Shown in pieces: positions 18,564-36,978 of a stretch of 64,000 bases of DNA (within the stretch, counting starts at the first letter, position 1; every line of letters begins with the position of its first letter). The notes below the pieces were generated by a model. The model saw nothing but the letters and a program-made list of their open reading frames with translations, was not told where the DNA came from and ran no database searches. Source of the DNA: Patescibacteria group bacterium (GTDB taxonomy: Bacteria; Patescibacteriota; Saccharimonadia; Saccharimonadales; UBA4665); NCBI GenBank assembly GCA_035479615.1, contig DATIIM010000019.1, positions 29,590 through 93,589 on the forward strand, in the 5' to 3' direction. A program made the translations under genes and the position numbers.

Positions 18564-20006
18564 ATGGCTACCAGTTTTTTCTTTTATGACCTTGAAACGA
18601 GCGGCTTTAGCCCGCGCTCGCACCGCATTATGCAGTTTGCCGGGCAGCGGACAGACTTAGAACTGAACCCGATTGGCGAGCCGGTCGACATCTTAATTAA
18701 AATGACCGACGACAATTTGCCGGATGTTGACGCCGTGCTATTAACCGGCATTACGCCACAGCAAACGATTATGGACGGCGTAACCGAAGCAGAATTTTTG
18801 CGGACATTTACCGACGAAGTTGCCACGCCGGGCACGGTGTTTGTGGGCTTTAACACGATCCGGTTCGACGACGAATTTATGCGCACGCTGCATTACCGCA
18901 ACTTTTACGATGCCTACGAATGGCAGTGGCAGGACAACCGCGGTAAGTGGGACATGCTCGACGTGGTGCGCATGACGCGCGCCCTGCGCCCGGATGGCAT
19001 TGAGTGGCCGTTCGACGCCAAAGGCAACCCAACCAACCGTTTGGAACTGCTCACGGCGCTTAACAAACTGGATCACGAACACGCCCACGACGCCCTCAGC
19101 GACGTTGACGCCACAATTAGCGTGGCACGTTTGATCCGCAACAAGCAAACTAAGCTTTTCGACTACCTGTTTACCATGCGGGACAAAAAGAAGCTGGCTG
19201 AACTCGTCGAATCCAATGAGCCGTTTGTGTATACCAGCGGCAAGTACCCGTCTGAACACGAAAAGACCACGGTTGCCGTGCAATTGTGCGCCCAACCAGA
19301 GCGCAGCGGCGGCGTGCTAGTGTACGATTTGCGCCACGACCCAAATGACTGGATCACTAAAACGCCGGAGCAGCTTGCCGAAGCCTGGCGCTGGAAGAAA
19401 GACAATACCGACCCGCGGTTGCCGGTCAAGGCAATGCAGTACAACCATTGCCCGGCAGTGGCGCCGCTGGGTGTTCTGGATGCTGCCAGCCAAAAACGGC
19501 TGCAAATTGACCCGGCAACGATCCGTAAACACTATGAAACACTTAAGCAAGCTACAGGCTTTGTGGATGCTGTGTGCAAGGCTTTGGAGATCAACAACAA
19601 GCAGCGCCAAACTAGTTTGGTGAGCACTGAAAGCGACGTCGACAGCGCCCTGTATGAAGGGTTCTTTGGCCCGGAAGACAAACGGGCGATGAGCGTGGTG
19701 CGGGCCGCCGCGCCTCAAGAACTTGGCGGCTTGGGTTTGAAGTTCCGCGACCAGCGGCTGGAGGCATTACTGCCGCTTTACAAAGCCCGCAATTATCCCA
19801 AGCTATTAACCAGCGAAGAACGCGAAGAATGGGAACGATTCCGCATTAGTCGCTTGGCTACGGGCGGCACGGGCAGCCAATTGGCCAAGTACTTCGCGCG
19901 CCTGCAAGACGTTATCGCCAAGGGCGGTCTGACTGGCCACCAAGAGTATTTAGTTGAAGAATTACGGCTGTATGCCGAGAGCATCATGCCGGAGCCGGAA
20001 GTTTAG
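18564..20006 (+). CDS. sbcB: Exodeoxyribonuclease I
   Basis: DEDDh motifs FYDLETSG, GFNTIRFDDEF and HAHDALSDV; LLPLYKARNYP. Confidence 0.95.
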   Translation: MATSFFFYDLETSGFSPRSHRIMQFAGQRTDLELNPIGEPVDILIKMTDDNLPDVDAVLLTGITPQQTIMDGVTEAEFLRTFTDEVATPGTVFVGFNTIRFDDEFMRTLHYRNFYDAYEWQWQDNRGKWDMLDVVRMTRALRPDGIEWPFDAKGNPTNRLELLTALNKLDHEHAHDALSDVDATISVARLIRNKQTKLFDYLFTMRDKKKLAELVESNEPFVYTSGKYPSEHEKTTVAVQLCAQPERSGGVLVYDLRHDPNDWITKTPEQLAEAWRWKKDNTDPRLPVKAMQYNHCPAVAPLGVLDAASQKRLQIDPATIRKHYETLKQATGFVDAVCKALEINNKQRQTSLVSTESDVDSALYEGFFGPEDKRAMSVVRAAAPQELGGLGLKFRDQRLEALLPLYKARNYPKLLTSEEREEWERFRISRLATGGTGSQLAKYFARLQDVIAKGGLTGHQEYLVEELRLYAESIMPEPEV

Positions 20007-20007
20007 T

Positions 20008-20565
20008 ATGCGCGTAACTCTAGCTGCTGTTATTTCGCTGGATGGCCGGGCCACGCGGGGCGACGATCCGAACAACCACGCCTGGTCTTCGACCGAGGAC
20101 TGGCACCATTTTATGGAACTCCGCGACCTGTCTGACGCTGTTATTATCGACCGTCTGACGTACGAAACCGTTAAGCCAGAGCCGGAAGCTGCACGGCTCC
20201 GCGTTGTTCTAACCAACCACCCAGGGTTGTACGCTGGCAAAGAAGTACCCAACCAGCTAGAGTTCACCGGCGGGAAGCCCACAACCTTACTCAAGAATTT
20301 ACAGCAGCGCGGCAAACAACGAGTGCTGGTTGCTGGCAACAATGCCTTGCTGCACAGCTTTTTGGCAGCTGGGGTAGTTGACGATTTGTACCTGTCGTTT
20401 GAACCGGTGTTGTTTGGGTCGGGCGAGCCGCTCATTGAAGCACCGCAGACGCTGAACGTCCAACTACAGCTACAAAGTGTCAAGGAATTGAACAAGCAGG
20501 GCACGCTGCTGGCACACTATATCGTGGCGAATACAGGCACGAACACCAGCCAGCCTAGCGCTTAG
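20008..20565 (+). CDS. Dihydrofolate reductase / RibD C-terminal-domain family protein (copy 1)
   Basis: MRVTLAAVISLDG...FLAAGVVDDLYLSFEPVLFGSG. The ATG at 20008 directly follows the sbcB stop; the ORF-track extension overlaps sbcB. Confidence 0.8.
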   Translation: MRVTLAAVISLDGRATRGDDPNNHAWSSTEDWHHFMELRDLSDAVIIDRLTYETVKPEPEAARLRVVLTNHPGLYAGKEVPNQLEFTGGKPTTLLKNLQQRGKQRVLVAGNNALLHSFLAAGVVDDLYLSFEPVLFGSGEPLIEAPQTLNVQLQLQSVKELNKQGTLLAHYIVANTGTNTSQPSA

Positions 20566-20839
20566 CGCCAGGTTTGAACTTCAAGACGAATGCACGCCAC
20601 TTTTTGAGGCCAGCCTTGGCGCCAGTTTTTACCAGGGCGATCAGCCAGTCGCGGACTTTTTCAGCAAAAGCGAACTCAGTAGCCAGAATGGCAAAGCCTA
20701 AGAAAATTGCCGCCCAACCTGGGCCAGGCAGAATCAGCATTGCCAAGCCGGTGAGGATCACGGCTGAACCAATAACCAAAATGAGCGGCTTACGAACAGC
20801 TGCGGGGACCCGTTTCCAGTGTTTAGGCAAATTGCGCAT
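20555..20839 (-). CDS. PGPGW-motif small membrane protein
   Basis: GLAMLILPGPGWAAIFLGFAILATEF, with two hydrophobic segments. Confidence 0.85.
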   Translation of the reverse strand: MRNLPKHWKRVPAAVRKPLILVIGSAVILTGLAMLILPGPGWAAIFLGFAILATEFAFAEKVRDWLIALVKTGAKAGLKKWRAFVLKFKPGAKR

Positions 20840-20909
20840 GCAGGCATTATCGCATCATTCTGGCCAGCACGCTACCGGCCAGGCCAGCGGGATGCTAGAG
20901 TATATGCAG

Positions 20910-21437
20910 ATGAAAGTAGCGATTATTGCCATGGTGTCGGCCGATGGCCGGTTAACCCGCGGCACAGAGACCAATATCCATGCCTGGCGTTCGCCAGAAG
21001 AAGGGGCGATGTTTACCAAGCTACTCGGCCAGCACGAAGTGGTAATCGTCGGCCGCAAAGGGTATGAAGCTGCAGGCAGGCCAAAGCCCCGTGAAGGCCG
21101 GCTGTACGCAGTTATGACCCGCCATCCAGAGCGCTTCAAGGAGCTGACTGTGCCAGACCACTTGGAGTTTATGGATGATTCGCCGCACGACTTAATGCAA
21201 AACCTGCAAAAGCGCGGCTATCATTCCGCGGCAATCACGACCGGCGGTGACTTGAATAACGACTTTTTGGCCGCTGGCGTGGTGGATGAATTGTATTTGA
21301 CCATTGAGCCGTACATGTTTGGTGCGGGCGGCGATTTGGCTGGTACTAAAGCGCTGAACGTCAGTCTGACATTGCTCGATGTGCAGCAGCTAAACGACCG
21401 CGGCACACTGCTGGCACACTACAAACTGGGGCGCTAA
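20910..21437 (+). CDS. Dihydrofolate reductase / RibD C-terminal-domain family protein (copy 2)
   Basis: MKVAIIAMVSADG...GRKGYE...GGDLNNDFLAAGVVDELYLTIEPYMFGAG. Start is 20910 or 20904. Confidence 0.82.
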   Translation: MKVAIIAMVSADGRLTRGTETNIHAWRSPEEGAMFTKLLGQHEVVIVGRKGYEAAGRPKPREGRLYAVMTRHPERFKELTVPDHLEFMDDSPHDLMQNLQKRGYHSAAITTGGDLNNDFLAAGVVDELYLTIEPYMFGAGGDLAGTKALNVSLTLLDVQQLNDRGTLLAHYKLGR

Positions 21438-21438
21438 C

Positions 21439-21468
21439 TTGACAGACCACAGCACATGCCAGTACGCT
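21439..21468 (+). promoter_or_regulatory. Sigma70-type promoter for the transporter/ligase operon
   Basis: TTGACA (21439-21444), 18-nt spacer, TACGCT (21463-21468). Confidence 0.6.
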
Positions 21469-21488
21469 ACCTCAAAAGGAACACCGCT

Positions 21489-21551
21489 ATGTTGATAAAC
21501 AAGCACGTCACTACCTGGTCCGGATTCGTTGAGCGCAGCTCCCTTTGCTGA
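21489..21551 (+). CDS. Putative 20-aa leader peptide MLINKHVTTWSGFVERSSLC
   Basis: Manual translation. AAGGA (21476-21480) lies 8 nt upstream of the ATG. It sits in the leader of the VUT transporter gene. Confidence 0.4.
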   Translation: MLINKHVTTWSGFVERSSLC

Positions 21552-21586
21552 ACGTTTTCTAACCATACATAATATTTGAGGTAGTC

Positions 21587-22264
21587 ATGATACGTAAATT
21601 TGATCTTTTGGTGGCGTTATACATTTTTGGAGTAATGGTAACGGAGTTGATGGGAGCTAAAACCTTTCCGCTGCTGCACGTAAGCTGGGCGCACTTGAAC
21701 GCCAGCGTGGCAATCTTTGTACTGCCGCTACTGTTTACCGCTACCGACGTAGTCGTGGAAGTATATGGCCGGGCCCGGGCCCGTAGCCTGGTATTCTCGG
21801 GCATTTTAATGGTGTTCCTGGTGATGTTGTTCGCTCTATTGGCCACGCATTTGCCAGCTTCGCCGCGCTTTGCCAGCAGAGAAGCTGCTTACGACACAAT
21901 CTTTGGGGCTTCCATCCGCATTGCGGCTGCCAGCTTGACTGCCTTTGCGGTTTCGGAATTGCTCGACGTGGCGATCTTTAGCAAGCTGCGCCAAAAGATG
22001 CACAACAAGGCGTTGTGGCTGCGCAACAACGTGTCGAACTTTGTGTCGATGGGCGTTGACTCCGTGGTCTTCATTACCTTGGCTTTCTACGCCTTTGGGC
22101 ACCCGTTCGGTTCTAATGTGTCATTTTTGACCAGCCTGATTATTCCGTACTGGCTCATTAAGTGTGCCTTTTCGGTCTTTGAAACCCCGTTGGTGTACGC
22201 CGGCGTGCGTTGGCTTAAGGGCACAAAGAAAAGCACTGCTAAGGTTGCTCCGGAAGCCGCATGA
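21587..22264 (+). CDS. VUT/YhhQ-family (queuosine-precursor-type) transporter
   Basis: Multi-TM protein with ASVAIFVLPLLFTATDVVVEVYG, RIAAASLTAFAVSELLDV and WLRNNVSNFVSMGVDS. Confidence 0.88.
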   Translation: MIRKFDLLVALYIFGVMVTELMGAKTFPLLHVSWAHLNASVAIFVLPLLFTATDVVVEVYGRARARSLVFSGILMVFLVMLFALLATHLPASPRFASREAAYDTIFGASIRIAAASLTAFAVSELLDVAIFSKLRQKMHNKALWLRNNVSNFVSMGVDSVVFITLAFYAFGHPFGSNVSFLTSLIIPYWLIKCAFSVFETPLVYAGVRWLKGTKKSTAKVAPEAA

Positions 22265-23016
22265 TAGCCCGCGCCATTCGCACTCGCAAAGTTACGCCTT
22301 CGGCCTGCACGATTTTTGAGCTGCTGGACGAATCCATAACAGAGATGAAGGAGCAGAGTATTCTGGTCATCACCTCCAAGGTCATTTCGCTGTGCGAAGG
22401 GCGCGTGGCGCCAATAGCAGGCACTGACCTGCAAGCGCTGGTACGCGAAGAGGCTGAGCAATACATGCCCGAAGCGCACGCCCAGCACGGGTACACGTTT
22501 ACGATCGCCCACAATATGCTGACGCCTAATTCTGGCATCGATGAATCAAATGCCGACGGCCAGTACGTGCTGTGGCCAAGCGACCCGCAGGCCAGCGCCA
22601 ATGCCGTACGCGAATATTTGTGCGAGCGGTTTAAGCTGCAAGACGTGGGTGTGGTTATTGCTGACGGCGACTTTATTGCGCTGCGCTGGGGCGCCATTGG
22701 GCTGGCCCTGGCATACAGCGGCTTTGAGCCAGTGCGTCACTATGCCGACCAGGTTGATTTGTTCGGACGGCCGCTATTGTATACCCGCACAAACATCATG
22801 GACGCTATTGCCACTTCGGCCACGCTGTTAATGGGTGAGGGGGCCGAACAAACACCGCTCGCGCTGTTTGAAGACCTGCCACCCATCAACTTCCAGCGCC
22901 GCAATCCGACAGCCGAAGAACTGGCTGGCATGCGCGCTACCTTGGCAGAAGATTCATATGCGCCATTGCTGCAGGCAGTGACCTGGAAAGACGGCGGCCG
23001 CAAGACTAGCCCTTAG
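22261..23016 (+). CDS. CofE-like gamma-glutamyl ligase (F420-0:L-glutamate ligase / FolC2 family)
   Basis: VITSKVISLCEG, SGIDESN, GVVIADG, DLFGRPL and MGEGAEQTP. Its start overlaps the transporter stop (ATGA). Confidence 0.85.
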   Translation: MIARAIRTRKVTPSACTIFELLDESITEMKEQSILVITSKVISLCEGRVAPIAGTDLQALVREEAEQYMPEAHAQHGYTFTIAHNMLTPNSGIDESNADGQYVLWPSDPQASANAVREYLCERFKLQDVGVVIADGDFIALRWGAIGLALAYSGFEPVRHYADQVDLFGRPLLYTRTNIMDAIATSATLLMGEGAEQTPLALFEDLPPINFQRRNPTAEELAGMRATLAEDSYAPLLQAVTWKDGGRKTSP

Positions 23017-36237: not shown

Positions 36238-36978
36238 ATGGGTACCAACCGCCGCCTTCCTGCCTTTTTACCGCCTGACCAATACGACCTAACCGATGCT
36301 GATCGCGCTCGTTTTATCGAAGAGCGGCAGCGCGGTATGTTGCCGCCAGATAGCCCAGAGCTATCTAAAGCGGTCGCTCCCTTACCTGTAGACGCTATCA
36401 AAACTCCGCGTATCCAGCAGGTTATCGCCAGTTTGTTCACTGCTGCAAACGGACAGCGCCGCGACACCCTAAATGGTAAGAAAAAGCGTACACTCGTTGG
36501 TTTAGCGGCCCCGCAGATCGGCGAACGTTACCGGGTTATCCTTGTTGACACTAGAGTGGACGAAAGCCGTAAAGAGTACGGCAACCTCGAATGTCTCATT
36601 AACCCAGAAATTATTTGGCGAACCCGCGAAACCATAGAAGGCCGCGAAGGCTGCTTCTCGGCTGGCCCGGTATGGGGGCTGGTCCGGCGGCCAGCAGCCA
36701 TAAAAGTCCGGGCCTACACGAAAGACGGCGTGCAAGTAGAACGCATCCTCGAAGGCTTTACCGCCCGCATAGCCTGCCACGAAATAGACCACCTGGATGG
36801 TATACGCTTCCCAGAACGTATCAAGAACGACCGTAAGCGGCACTGGGTGCACACCGAGGAGTTGGGCGACTACCCGGACTACATCAAACACTGGCCTCGG
36901 CTCTGTACCAAGGAGCGTTGGGAGGCGTACAAAATTGCCGGTAACGACGCCAGCCTCCGAGCTACTCCTCGCGCATAA
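36238..36978 (+). CDS. def: Peptide deformylase with N- and C-terminal extensions
   Basis: The three PDF motifs GLAAPQIG, EGCFS and HEIDHLDG. Confidence 0.88.
   Translation: MGTNRRLPAFLPPDQYDLTDADRARFIEERQRGMLPPDSPELSKAVAPLPVDAIKTPRIQQVIASLFTAANGQRRDTLNGKKKRTLVGLAAPQIGERYRVILVDTRVDESRKEYGNLECLINPEIIWRTRETIEGREGCFSAGPVWGLVRRPAAIKVRAYTKDGVQVERILEGFTARIACHEIDHLDGIRFPERIKNDRKRHWVHTEELGDYPDYIKHWPRLCTKERWEAYKIAGNDASLRATPRA

Follow-up and report, generated by a model that had tools for sequence, protein, structure and literature searches.

A short leader in the genome of a Patescibacteria group bacterium (Saccharimonadales) is likely to be an erm/trp-like leader-peptide attenuator, one copy of a widespread Patescibacteria family in which a peptide-dependent ribosome pause would control genes of folate and one-carbon metabolism. 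The leader lies in a 64,000-nucleotide (nt) stretch of DNA (assembly GCA_035479615.1, contig DATIIM010000019.1, positions 29,590 to 93,589), here called the window, with positions counted from its first letter. It separates two RibD_C/DHFR-like reductase genes from the gene for a VUT/YhhQ-family transporter and contains a 20-codon upstream open reading frame (uORF), the first 13 residues of which (MLxNKxxxTWS[G/S]F) recur in front of folate and one-carbon genes of other Patescibacteria. Comparative conservation of this peptide is the strongest evidence that the element is real.

The original prediction, made from the window sequence without database searches, described a promoter, a 20-codon uORF with its own Shine-Dalgarno (SD) sequence, a hairpin, and two segments complementary to the SD region of the transporter gene. 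All of these were found where it had placed them. The features of the leader are as follows.

21439 to 21468, forward strand: predicted sigma-70-type promoter (−35 box TTGACA at 21439 to 21444, 18-nt spacer, −10 box TACGCT at 21463 to 21468), read from the sequence.
21467 to 21476, forward strand: upstream complement CTACCTCAAA, complementary to TTTGAGGTAG at 21575 to 21584 in the VUT SD region.
21476 to 21481, forward strand: uORF SD sequence AAGGAA, 7 nt 5' of the uORF ATG, read from the sequence.
21489 to 21551, forward strand: uORF (ATG at 21489, 20 codons plus TGA at 21549 to 21551), encoding MLINKHVTTWSGFVERSSLC.
21489 to 21527, forward strand: uORF codons 1 to 13, the conserved core M L x N K x x x T W S G/S F that is the family signature.
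21506 to 21516, forward strand: anti-start/anti-SD segment in uORF codons 6 to 10 (21506 to 21508 complementary to the VUT ATG; ACTACCT at 21510 to 21516 complementary to AGGTAGT at 21579 to 21585).
21525 to 21533, forward strand: predicted regulatory ribosome position (P-site at codons 13 to 15), from constrained folding of family leaders.
21527 to 21554, forward strand: hairpin CGTTGAGCG/TGCTGAACG, spanning uORF codons 14 to 20 and the stop codon.
21578 to 21589, forward strand: SD sequence GAGG (21578 to 21581) and start codon (21587 to 21589) of the VUT gene, the putative regulated target.

Orthologous leaders were gathered by means of the VUT protein alone. Sixty relatives yielded 11 further loci with usable upstream sequence (58 to 73% identity), and 10 of the 11 had a uORF at the same place, encoding M-L-x-N-K-[H/R]-[V/I/T]-[T/R]-T-W-S-[G/S]-[F/Y]; at locus L010 (genome G040, same order, 58% VUT identity), neither a recognizable leader peptide nor an Rfam match was found upstream. 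In the 10 orthologous leaders, M1, L2, N4, K5, T9, W10, and S11 were invariant, with two to three synonymous codons used per degenerate site, and position 13 was Phe save for one Tyr. Pairwise comparison of codons among the 11 sequences (the 10 orthologues and the window) gave 274 synonymous versus 145 nonsynonymous differences, the latter confined to positions 3, 6, 7, 8, 12, and 13. The conserved block shows codon periodicity with freely varying wobble positions. Neither the length nor the sequence of the frame is shared past residue 14, and the spacer to the transporter gene ranges from 27 to 205 nt and contains no conserved sequence.

The element appears to be a translated leader peptide under peptide-level selection and not an aptamer, because amino acids are kept while wobble positions are free, the downstream RNA is unconserved, and Rfam gave no match. 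A new riboswitch, one of the two readings first proposed for this leader, is therefore hard to uphold. In that reading, the leader RNA would bind preQ1, folate, or another ligand and hide the SD sequence; VUT/YhhQ genes elsewhere sit behind preQ1 riboswitches, and the leader is indeed structured, with SD-sequestering helices. Nevertheless, comparison of region 21300 to 21750 with Rfam at an E value of ≤10 matched no family, and only tRNAs were returned when the whole window was scanned at gathering thresholds and when 16 other family loci were compared with Rfam. Not only the sequence and length of the RNA past codon 14 but also the type of expression platform vary among loci, and the riboswitch reading is extremely unlikely.

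The size of the family was estimated with a degenerate DNA pattern for codons 1 to 13, for which about two chance matches were expected in the species-genome collection (our own information-content estimate). Matches were obtained in 98 genomes (each from a different species) and in at least 120 contigs from metagenomes, and almost all matching records were Saccharibacteria or other Patescibacteria. Short frames of 14 to 30 codons were present at 97 of the 98 genome matches and nearly all of the at least 120 metagenome matches. The pattern fixed nine residues, left position 12 free, and allowed Phe at position 2; the conservation of the nine residues is therefore shown by the protein-anchored set and by the free positions, not by the pattern matches. 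Among the 98 genome matches, position 12 was Gly in 52, Ser in 45, and Ala in 1; Leu2 was encoded by all six Leu codons, with Phe never found; and position 7 was Ile, Val, or Thr in 86. The shortest uORF of the family has 14 codons, and the motif is fixed at residues 1 to 13. One locus (L035, genome G474), marked as unpublished, adds one count to the family tallies, and no claim depends on it alone. The window leader has the features that define the family: the core MLxNKxxxTWS[G/S]F starting at Met1, a uORF of 14 to 30 codons, and a position directly before a folate/one-carbon gene.

The window peptide scored 39.2 bits against the family profile. When an even sample of 400 Patescibacteria genomes was searched with this profile, two strong matches (G267 and G160) and one weaker match (G452) were obtained besides the window genome; the divergent variants (MLHNHSTKTWSGFV.., MLIRKDIKTWSGFI.., and MIISNKIVTWSSFIK) all have Trp at position 10. 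The element is sporadic across the phylum and common in the genus of the window. Five leader-bearing genomes of ∼1.0 to 1.1 Mb (G061 to G065; loci L032, L048, L097, L101, and L104) are labeled Gammaproteobacteria, Nevskiaceae, Planctomycetota, or Pristimantibacillus, and an Omp85/BamA gene was not found in any of the five. Because these are ∼1-Mb genomes without Omp85, the taxonomic labels of the five genomes checked are doubtful, and their leaders are not taken as a spread of the family beyond Patescibacteria.

Promoter placement also recurs among the leaders. In the window, the −35 box begins one base past the stop codon of the upstream RibD_C gene, and transcription from this proximal promoter is predicted to start at about 21474 to 21476. 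The orthologues share a TTGAC(A/T/G)-N17/18-TA(A/G/C)(G/C)CT arrangement ∼20 nt 5' of the uORF ATG, and those of the genus have purine-rich SD sequences at the equivalent place before the uORF. Across the family, promoter-like sites directly 5' of the uORF were present at 42 of 97 loci, compared to 1 of 89 control windows. The spacing between −10 box and ATG follows a bimodal pattern of either 19 to 23 nt (a short SD-bearing leader, as in the window) or 6 to 10 nt. In many family members (L129, L130, L138, L124, and about 18 loci), the −10 box ends 6 to 10 nt before the uORF ATG and no SD sequence is present; these uORFs would be translated from leaderless mRNA.

Next, the genes behind the leader were compared. 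At 94 genome loci, the first gene belonged to Vut_1 in 37 cases, NlpC_P60 in 11, F420_ligase in 6, FolB in 6, FGase in 5, 2OG-FeII_Oxy_2 in 5, and DHFR in 2, with single cases of SHMT, RibD_C, and a Mur ligase. The second and third genes of the same loci added F420_ligase (29), GTP cyclohydrolase I (4), FolP (dihydropteroate synthase; 4), HPPK (1), FolD (1), and SHMT (1). Metagenome loci repeated these classes and added FolE-PabA-PabB (L229), FolE (L251), and a SerA-like dehydrogenase (L178). The genes associated with the leader thus comprise VUT with its CofE/FolC2-like ligase, FolE, FolB, FolK, FolP, PabAB, FolC, DHFR, GlyA, FolD, and SerA, which suggests that the family regulon is folate and one-carbon metabolism and not queuosine.

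This association bears on a further suggestion of the original prediction, a speculative sensing route through the Asn and His codons of the uORF, which are read by queuosine (Q)-modified tRNAs. In such a route, slow decoding of these codons by tRNAs lacking Q would control a transporter of a Q precursor. Asn4 is invariant, position 6 is His in the window, and the target is a YhhQ-family gene, all as such sensing would have it. Across the family, however, position 6 is Arg in 41, His in 29, Lys in 13, and Asn in 11 leaders (His6 is replaced by Arg, Lys, Asn, or Gln in relatives), Asn4 uses both AAC and AAT, and the same leader precedes FolE, FolB, FolP, DHFR, GlyA, and SerA. The modeled regulatory position (see below) is at codons 13 to 15 and not 4 to 6, with little effect at codons 1 to 8. 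The window genome (G000; 1.27 Mb, 99% complete) has fmt, def, a second def, thyA, glyA, folD, and a DHFR gene, while neither FolP nor tRNA-guanine transglycosylase (TGT) was found in it. This gene content points to an organism that uses folate but is probably unable to make it and probably does without queuosine. A Q-precursor role of the window VUT and sensing through Q-modified tRNA therefore lose their basis, and the latter is scarcely credible.

Several further gene classes were seen behind the leader. Three unrelated amidase families (NlpC/P60/CHAP-like, Peptidase_C92-like, and FGase-like) stand directly behind it at L118, L089, L117, L060, and ∼60 other loci; a possible role for them is the hydrolysis of folylpolyglutamate or p-aminobenzoyl-glutamate, which would make host folates ready for uptake. 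A ∼200-residue 2OG-Fe(II)_Oxy_2-like protein is encoded by the first gene of the leader operons L068, L058, L067, and L079, apparently followed, in the operons examined, by GTP cyclohydrolase I and dihydropteroate synthase; it is apparently fused to FolB in L045, L062, and L093. This protein may fill a missing folate or p-aminobenzoate step. In L178, the leader has the same 13-residue core and a Ser-rich tail (..GFVSCLSSST), and the gene behind it encodes a SerA-like, ACT domain-containing 3-phosphoglycerate dehydrogenase, which suggests that the leader core can be combined with classical Ser-codon sensing. Ser-rich tails were seen in the leader peptides of L185 and L140 too.

The presence of ATP-dependent ligase-like, 2OG-oxygenase-like, papain-like peptidase, and transporter genes downstream could also mean that the product of the uORF works in trans, either as a small protein or as a precursor resembling those of ribosomally synthesized and posttranslationally modified peptides, with its neighbors serving as processing and export machinery. 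The same peptide, however, precedes canonical FolE, FolB, FolK, FolP, DHFR, SHMT, FolD, and PabAB genes, its C-terminal tail is unconserved in length and sequence, and the uORF is followed by a terminator or SD-sequestering helix that responds to ribosome position in the models. A product acting in trans is a very improbable explanation of the family.

To model the attenuation proposed here, a ribosome footprint of −12 to +15 around the first P-site base was forced to be unpaired, and either the cost of opening the downstream SD sequence or the probability of the terminator was computed; downstream start codons were chosen by a simple SD score. In 31 VUT-type leaders with a clear SD sequence, a median of 6.75 kcal/mol was needed to open positions −13 to −5 in the ribosome-free state. 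The largest drops in cost came with the P-site at codons 13, 14, and 15 (means of −2.7, −3.1, and −2.6 kcal/mol), where 65 to 77% of the leaders were lowered by more than 1 kcal/mol. Little changed with the ribosome at codons 1 to 8, and the cost recovered at codons 17 to 18. When the spacers were dinucleotide shuffled, the cost was 5.2 kcal/mol free and changed by −0.5 kcal/mol with the ribosome, compared to 7.0 and −3.3 kcal/mol for the real leaders. In the 16 uORFs of at least 17 codons, the optimum stayed at codons 13 to 14, with an effect of ∼0 at the last sense codon; because the optimum did not move in these long uORFs, the effect at codons 13 to 15 is not mere proximity to the stop codon.

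The position of this optimum also bears on a hungry-codon attenuator, in which failure of one-carbon metabolism would leave too little charged tRNA for Ser11, Gly/Ser12, or Trp10 and the peptide itself would be irrelevant. The folate enzyme GlyA interconverts Ser and Gly, position 12 is Gly or Ser (one Ala among the 98 genome matches), the leader before the SerA-like gene has its Ser-rich tail, and the SD-opening cost is somewhat reduced even with the P-site at codons 10 to 12 (−1.0 to −1.5 kcal/mol). Yet the uORF has no run of such codons, just one or two, the optimum lies beyond them at codons 13 to 15, and the regulon consists of cofactor uptake and synthesis and not of one amino acid. Nine conserved positions, including M1, L2, N4, K5, and F13, would be superfluous, and we regard such an attenuator as quite improbable.

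The attenuator proposed here would act through a second platform elsewhere in the family. Of 97 leaders, 50 have a terminator-like hairpin with a U-tail, and almost all of these have uORFs of at least 18 codons; in 45, the hairpin starts 10 to 45 nt past the stop codon. For these 45, the terminator probability was ∼0.2 to 0.3 (median, 0.00) for the ribosome-free leader and for P-sites no later than codon 15, 0.57 to 0.9 from codon 17 to the stop codon, and 0.8 to 0.9 at codon 19 or later and at the stop codon. In 38 further metagenome terminator leaders with new peptide sequences, the median probability was 0.33 free and ∼0.6 at codons 5 to 8, passed through a distinct minimum at codons 13 to 15 (median, 0.06 to 0.09), and was 0.9 late. 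The three leader sets agree in the models: a ribosome just past the conserved motif would be the ON state and a ribosome at the stop codon the OFF state. Absence of translation is not the common ON state, because it is OFF in the SD type but ON in many terminator-type leaders.

The window copy itself appears from its folding to be an SD-type leader with a long tail. The proximal transcript (21475 to 21600) folds at −29.9 kcal/mol, and in both its minimum free energy and centroid structures, 21506 to 21508 pair with the VUT ATG and 21510 to 21516 pair with 21579 to 21585, enclosing the 21527 to 21554 hairpin. This hairpin is the inner part of a long stem-loop that brings the VUT SD sequence beside the anti-SD segment; a terminator scan of the window leader did not call it, and its U-tail, TTTTCT, is weak. 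The heptamer ACTACCT and its complement occur at 12 sites in the window (including 21510 to 21516 and 21579 to 21585), compared to 4.4 ± 2.0 expected and none of 100 shuffles reaching 12, an excess that may stem from Thr-Thr codon usage or SD-like AGGTAG sites.

Opening the window SD sequence cost 6.75 kcal/mol free, 2.59 kcal/mol with the P-site at codon 7, 3.43 kcal/mol at codon 13, and 6.76 kcal/mol at the last sense codon. The translational attenuator with a uORF and anti-SD pairing, the other reading first proposed, is borne out to this extent: the peptide is under selection, the SD sequence and start codon pair with codons 6 to 10, and ribosome occupancy opens them in the models. In the orthologous leaders, the uORF peptide was kept in 10 of 11 and neither anti-SD pairing was conserved. 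A simpler coupling, in which translation of the uORF merely unwinds the SD helix and VUT expression tracks general translation with no specific signal, would suit the opening of the window SD sequence by a ribosome anywhere from codon 7 to codon 13. It leaves unexplained why the peptide is so strictly conserved across Patescibacteria classes, why it is linked exclusively to folate and one-carbon genes, and why there are terminator-type platforms, where finished uORF translation favors termination, and we consider it very unlikely.

The upstream complement appears to be a matter of the window lineage. The long read-through leader (21465 to 21600) folds at −37.4 kcal/mol (z score, −3.36) and is closed by an 11-bp upstream/SD helix; the duplex of CTACCTCAAA at 21467 to 21476 with the SD region has an energy of −16.7 kcal/mol, compared to −7.3 ± 2.0 kcal/mol when shuffled (none of 200 as good). 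CTACCTCAAA overlaps the −10 box and therefore lies mostly outside the proximal-promoter transcript, in agreement with the earlier remark that this complement would be found mainly in read-through transcripts; it would be present only in those coming from the RibD_C genes. As a family feature, the pairing was rejected, not being conserved in nine orthologues. In the window lineage, it may silence VUT on read-through RibD_C transcripts, or it may be fortuitous.

Taken together, these results suggest the following mechanism. The promoter directly upstream would start the mRNA, in which the uORF is the first translated element; the conserved sensor would be residues 1 to 13 of the uORF peptide, MLxNKxxxTWS[G/S]F. 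The nascent peptide would hold the ribosome with its P-site at about codons 13 to 15, so that RNA segments are covered or freed and the downstream gene is expressed; a ribosome that runs to the stop codon and departs would allow the OFF structure to form. In the window, the OFF structure would be translational, with uORF codons 6 to 10 (21506 to 21516) paired with the VUT SD sequence and ATG (21579 to 21589), whereas about half of the family members would couple this peptide to an intrinsic terminator. The pause is expected at a low supply of folate or one-carbon units, because the held ribosome would be the ON state and the targets supply these compounds.

A number of points weigh against this account. 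Stalling, its position, and the ON/OFF polarity are deduced solely from equilibrium folding with an assumed −12 to +15 footprint. In the window, a ribosome at codon 7 opens the SD sequence as well as one at codon 13, the proximal leader is only modestly structured (z score, −1.88), and the pairing of 21510 to 21516 with 21579 to 21585 is unconserved, the anti-SD segment of the orthologues usually lying at or past the uORF stop codon. The CTACCTCAAA/SD pairing is within the range of shuffles in nine orthologous leaders and so is lineage specific. Among 25 non-VUT leaders, the SD-opening effect was weak (mean, −1.3 to −1.5 kcal/mol; median, ∼0); many loci of this gene class carry a terminator. 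The motif lies 1 to 17 codons from the stop codon, a variable distance unlike that in TnaC and SpeFL, and no resemblance to known arrest peptides was found (four leader peptides against Pfam and NCBIfam; the peptide and a 14-column profile against PDB chains). For both the VUT transporter and the amidase genes, a role with folate is drawn from context only. Finally, the leaders of the family are related, so that statistics and P values overstate their independence.

The conservation of the peptide is consistent with a nascent-peptide-dependent arrest triggered by a small molecule, and a metabolite acting with the nascent chain in the tunnel is a possible, tentatively proposed signal; scarcity of Ser- or Gly-tRNA would be an improbable one, and the signal may also be of another kind. 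We also considered, as an unlikely but specific proposal, that the ribosome senses the lack of a formyl group at the N terminus of the nascent leader peptide. With 10-formyl-tetrahydrofolate in short supply, unformylated Met-tRNA would be used for initiation, and the free amino terminus, 13 to 14 residues from the peptidyl-transferase center, would contact the exit tunnel and cause the arrest that switches on folate uptake, folate synthesis, and serine supply. Consistent with this proposal, conservation begins exactly at Met1-Leu2, the distance from the N terminus to Trp is fixed (Trp10 being kept even in divergent variants), the modeled regulatory position is at codons 13 to 15, the regulon holds cofactor genes and a SerA-like gene, and many uORFs look leaderless. 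The fmt gene is present in 40 of 40 leader-bearing genomes and does not discriminate. If the formyl reading is true, the translation machinery would provide a direct, protein-free readout of one-carbon status.

The genes flanking the window leader are as follows.

19954 to 21437, forward strand: two RibD_C/DHFR-like reductase genes, directly upstream of the leader (Pfam RibD_C, E values of 3.3e-17 and 7.1e-14).
21587 to 22264, forward strand: VUT/YhhQ-family transporter gene, 225 amino acids (Pfam Vut_1, E value of 6.5e-43).
22261 to 23016, forward strand: CofE/F420-ligase-like gene, overlapping the VUT stop codon (ATGA) (Pfam F420_ligase, E value of 9.5e-33).

The leader is single copy in this genome, with no second copy found, and it precedes the sole candidate folate uptake module. 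We infer that the window VUT is a folate or pterin importer. Its CofE-like partner is plausibly a FolC2-type folylpolyglutamate synthase, by analogy with CT611 (FolC2), a CofE homologue from Chlamydia that can complement a folC mutant of E. coli (PMC1971073). The VUT and CofE/FolC2-like operon thus most likely serves a folate auxotroph as a module for taking up and polyglutamylating folate. The VUT-ligase pair recurs in dozens of loci and is fused into one 472-residue protein in L059. Distant VUT paralogues of the relatives (26 to 34% identity) have neither the leader peptide nor a preQ1 riboswitch upstream. In L014 (150 to 256 and 218 to 2166), a SAM riboswitch (56.8 bits) is followed by metK and then by a distant VUT paralogue 31% identical to the window VUT. 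Together, the two reductases, VUT, and the ligase (19954 to 23016) are a candidate module for folate salvage. Besides the def-fmt pair on contig C11, a second homologue of peptide deformylase is encoded in the window at ∼36385 to 36837 (G000:C19:65974-66426; open frame of 260 amino acids).

In a survey of Candidate Phyla Radiation (CPR) genomes, no known folate transporter was reported in the genomes examined, and folA, glyA, and/or folD occurred in 90.8% of 4,581 genomes (PMC11974145). If the proposed attenuation is true, the VUT and CofE/FolC2-like pair becomes the leading candidate for the folate importer of Patescibacteria. The leader would then represent a new, peptide-based class of cis-regulators acting on a vitamin pathway, a regulon marker in organisms that are hard to study, and a pointer to several uncharacterized amidase and oxygenase-like families as candidate folate-salvage enzymes. 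The family is apparently undescribed: literature on the peptide motif, folate leader peptides in Patescibacteria, tetrahydrofolate (THF) stalling, formylation and arrest peptides, and COG1738 with folate did not describe the element, and the leader peptides matched nothing in Pfam, NCBIfam, or PDB chains at an E value of ≤10 save for two chance matches to an unrelated protein.

The family shares features with several known systems. Like the erm/cat translational attenuators (ErmCL, ErmBL, CatA86, and CmlA), the window leader has a short ORF with its own SD sequence and a downstream SD sequence locked in a helix; in erm/cat, arrest within the leader at a defined codon, caused by the nascent peptide, exposes the SD sequence, which matches the window layout and the modeling of 31 leaders. 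The erm/cat peptides have no sequence similarity to ours, their inducers are ribosome-binding antibiotics, and their targets are resistance genes, whereas the targets here are folate and one-carbon genes and the arrest site is predicted. About half of the family resembles the amino acid attenuators (trpL, hisL, pheL, thrL, and leuL) in having a leader ORF followed by antiterminator/terminator helices selected by the ribosome. The window copy has no convincing trp-type terminator, and such a terminator is present in 45 of 97 other family members and in the 38 metagenome members. Leaders of the trpL type have runs of codons for the regulated amino acid in an otherwise free peptide, whereas this family has a fixed 13-residue peptide and no such run, Ser-rich tails occurring solely in leaders before the SerA-like gene.

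TnaC (L-Trp) and SpeFL (L-ornithine) are likewise conserved leader peptides of metabolic operons under amino acid-level selection, and here too the ribosome and nascent chain would be the sensor. Both stall at the stop codon and act by blocking Rho, whereas the output in this family would be SD release or an intrinsic terminator. In physiological role, the closest counterparts are the THF-I, THF-II, and ZTP riboswitches, which regulate folate transport, folate synthesis, and one-carbon genes in cis. Those are RNA aptamers, whereas this family is without an Rfam match and is conserved in its peptide, and if the proposal holds, ribosome and nascent peptide would control folate and one-carbon metabolism where other bacteria use THF or ZTP riboswitches. 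Much like riboswitch aptamers, one peptide sensor would be joined to two expression platforms, SD sequestration and the intrinsic terminator.

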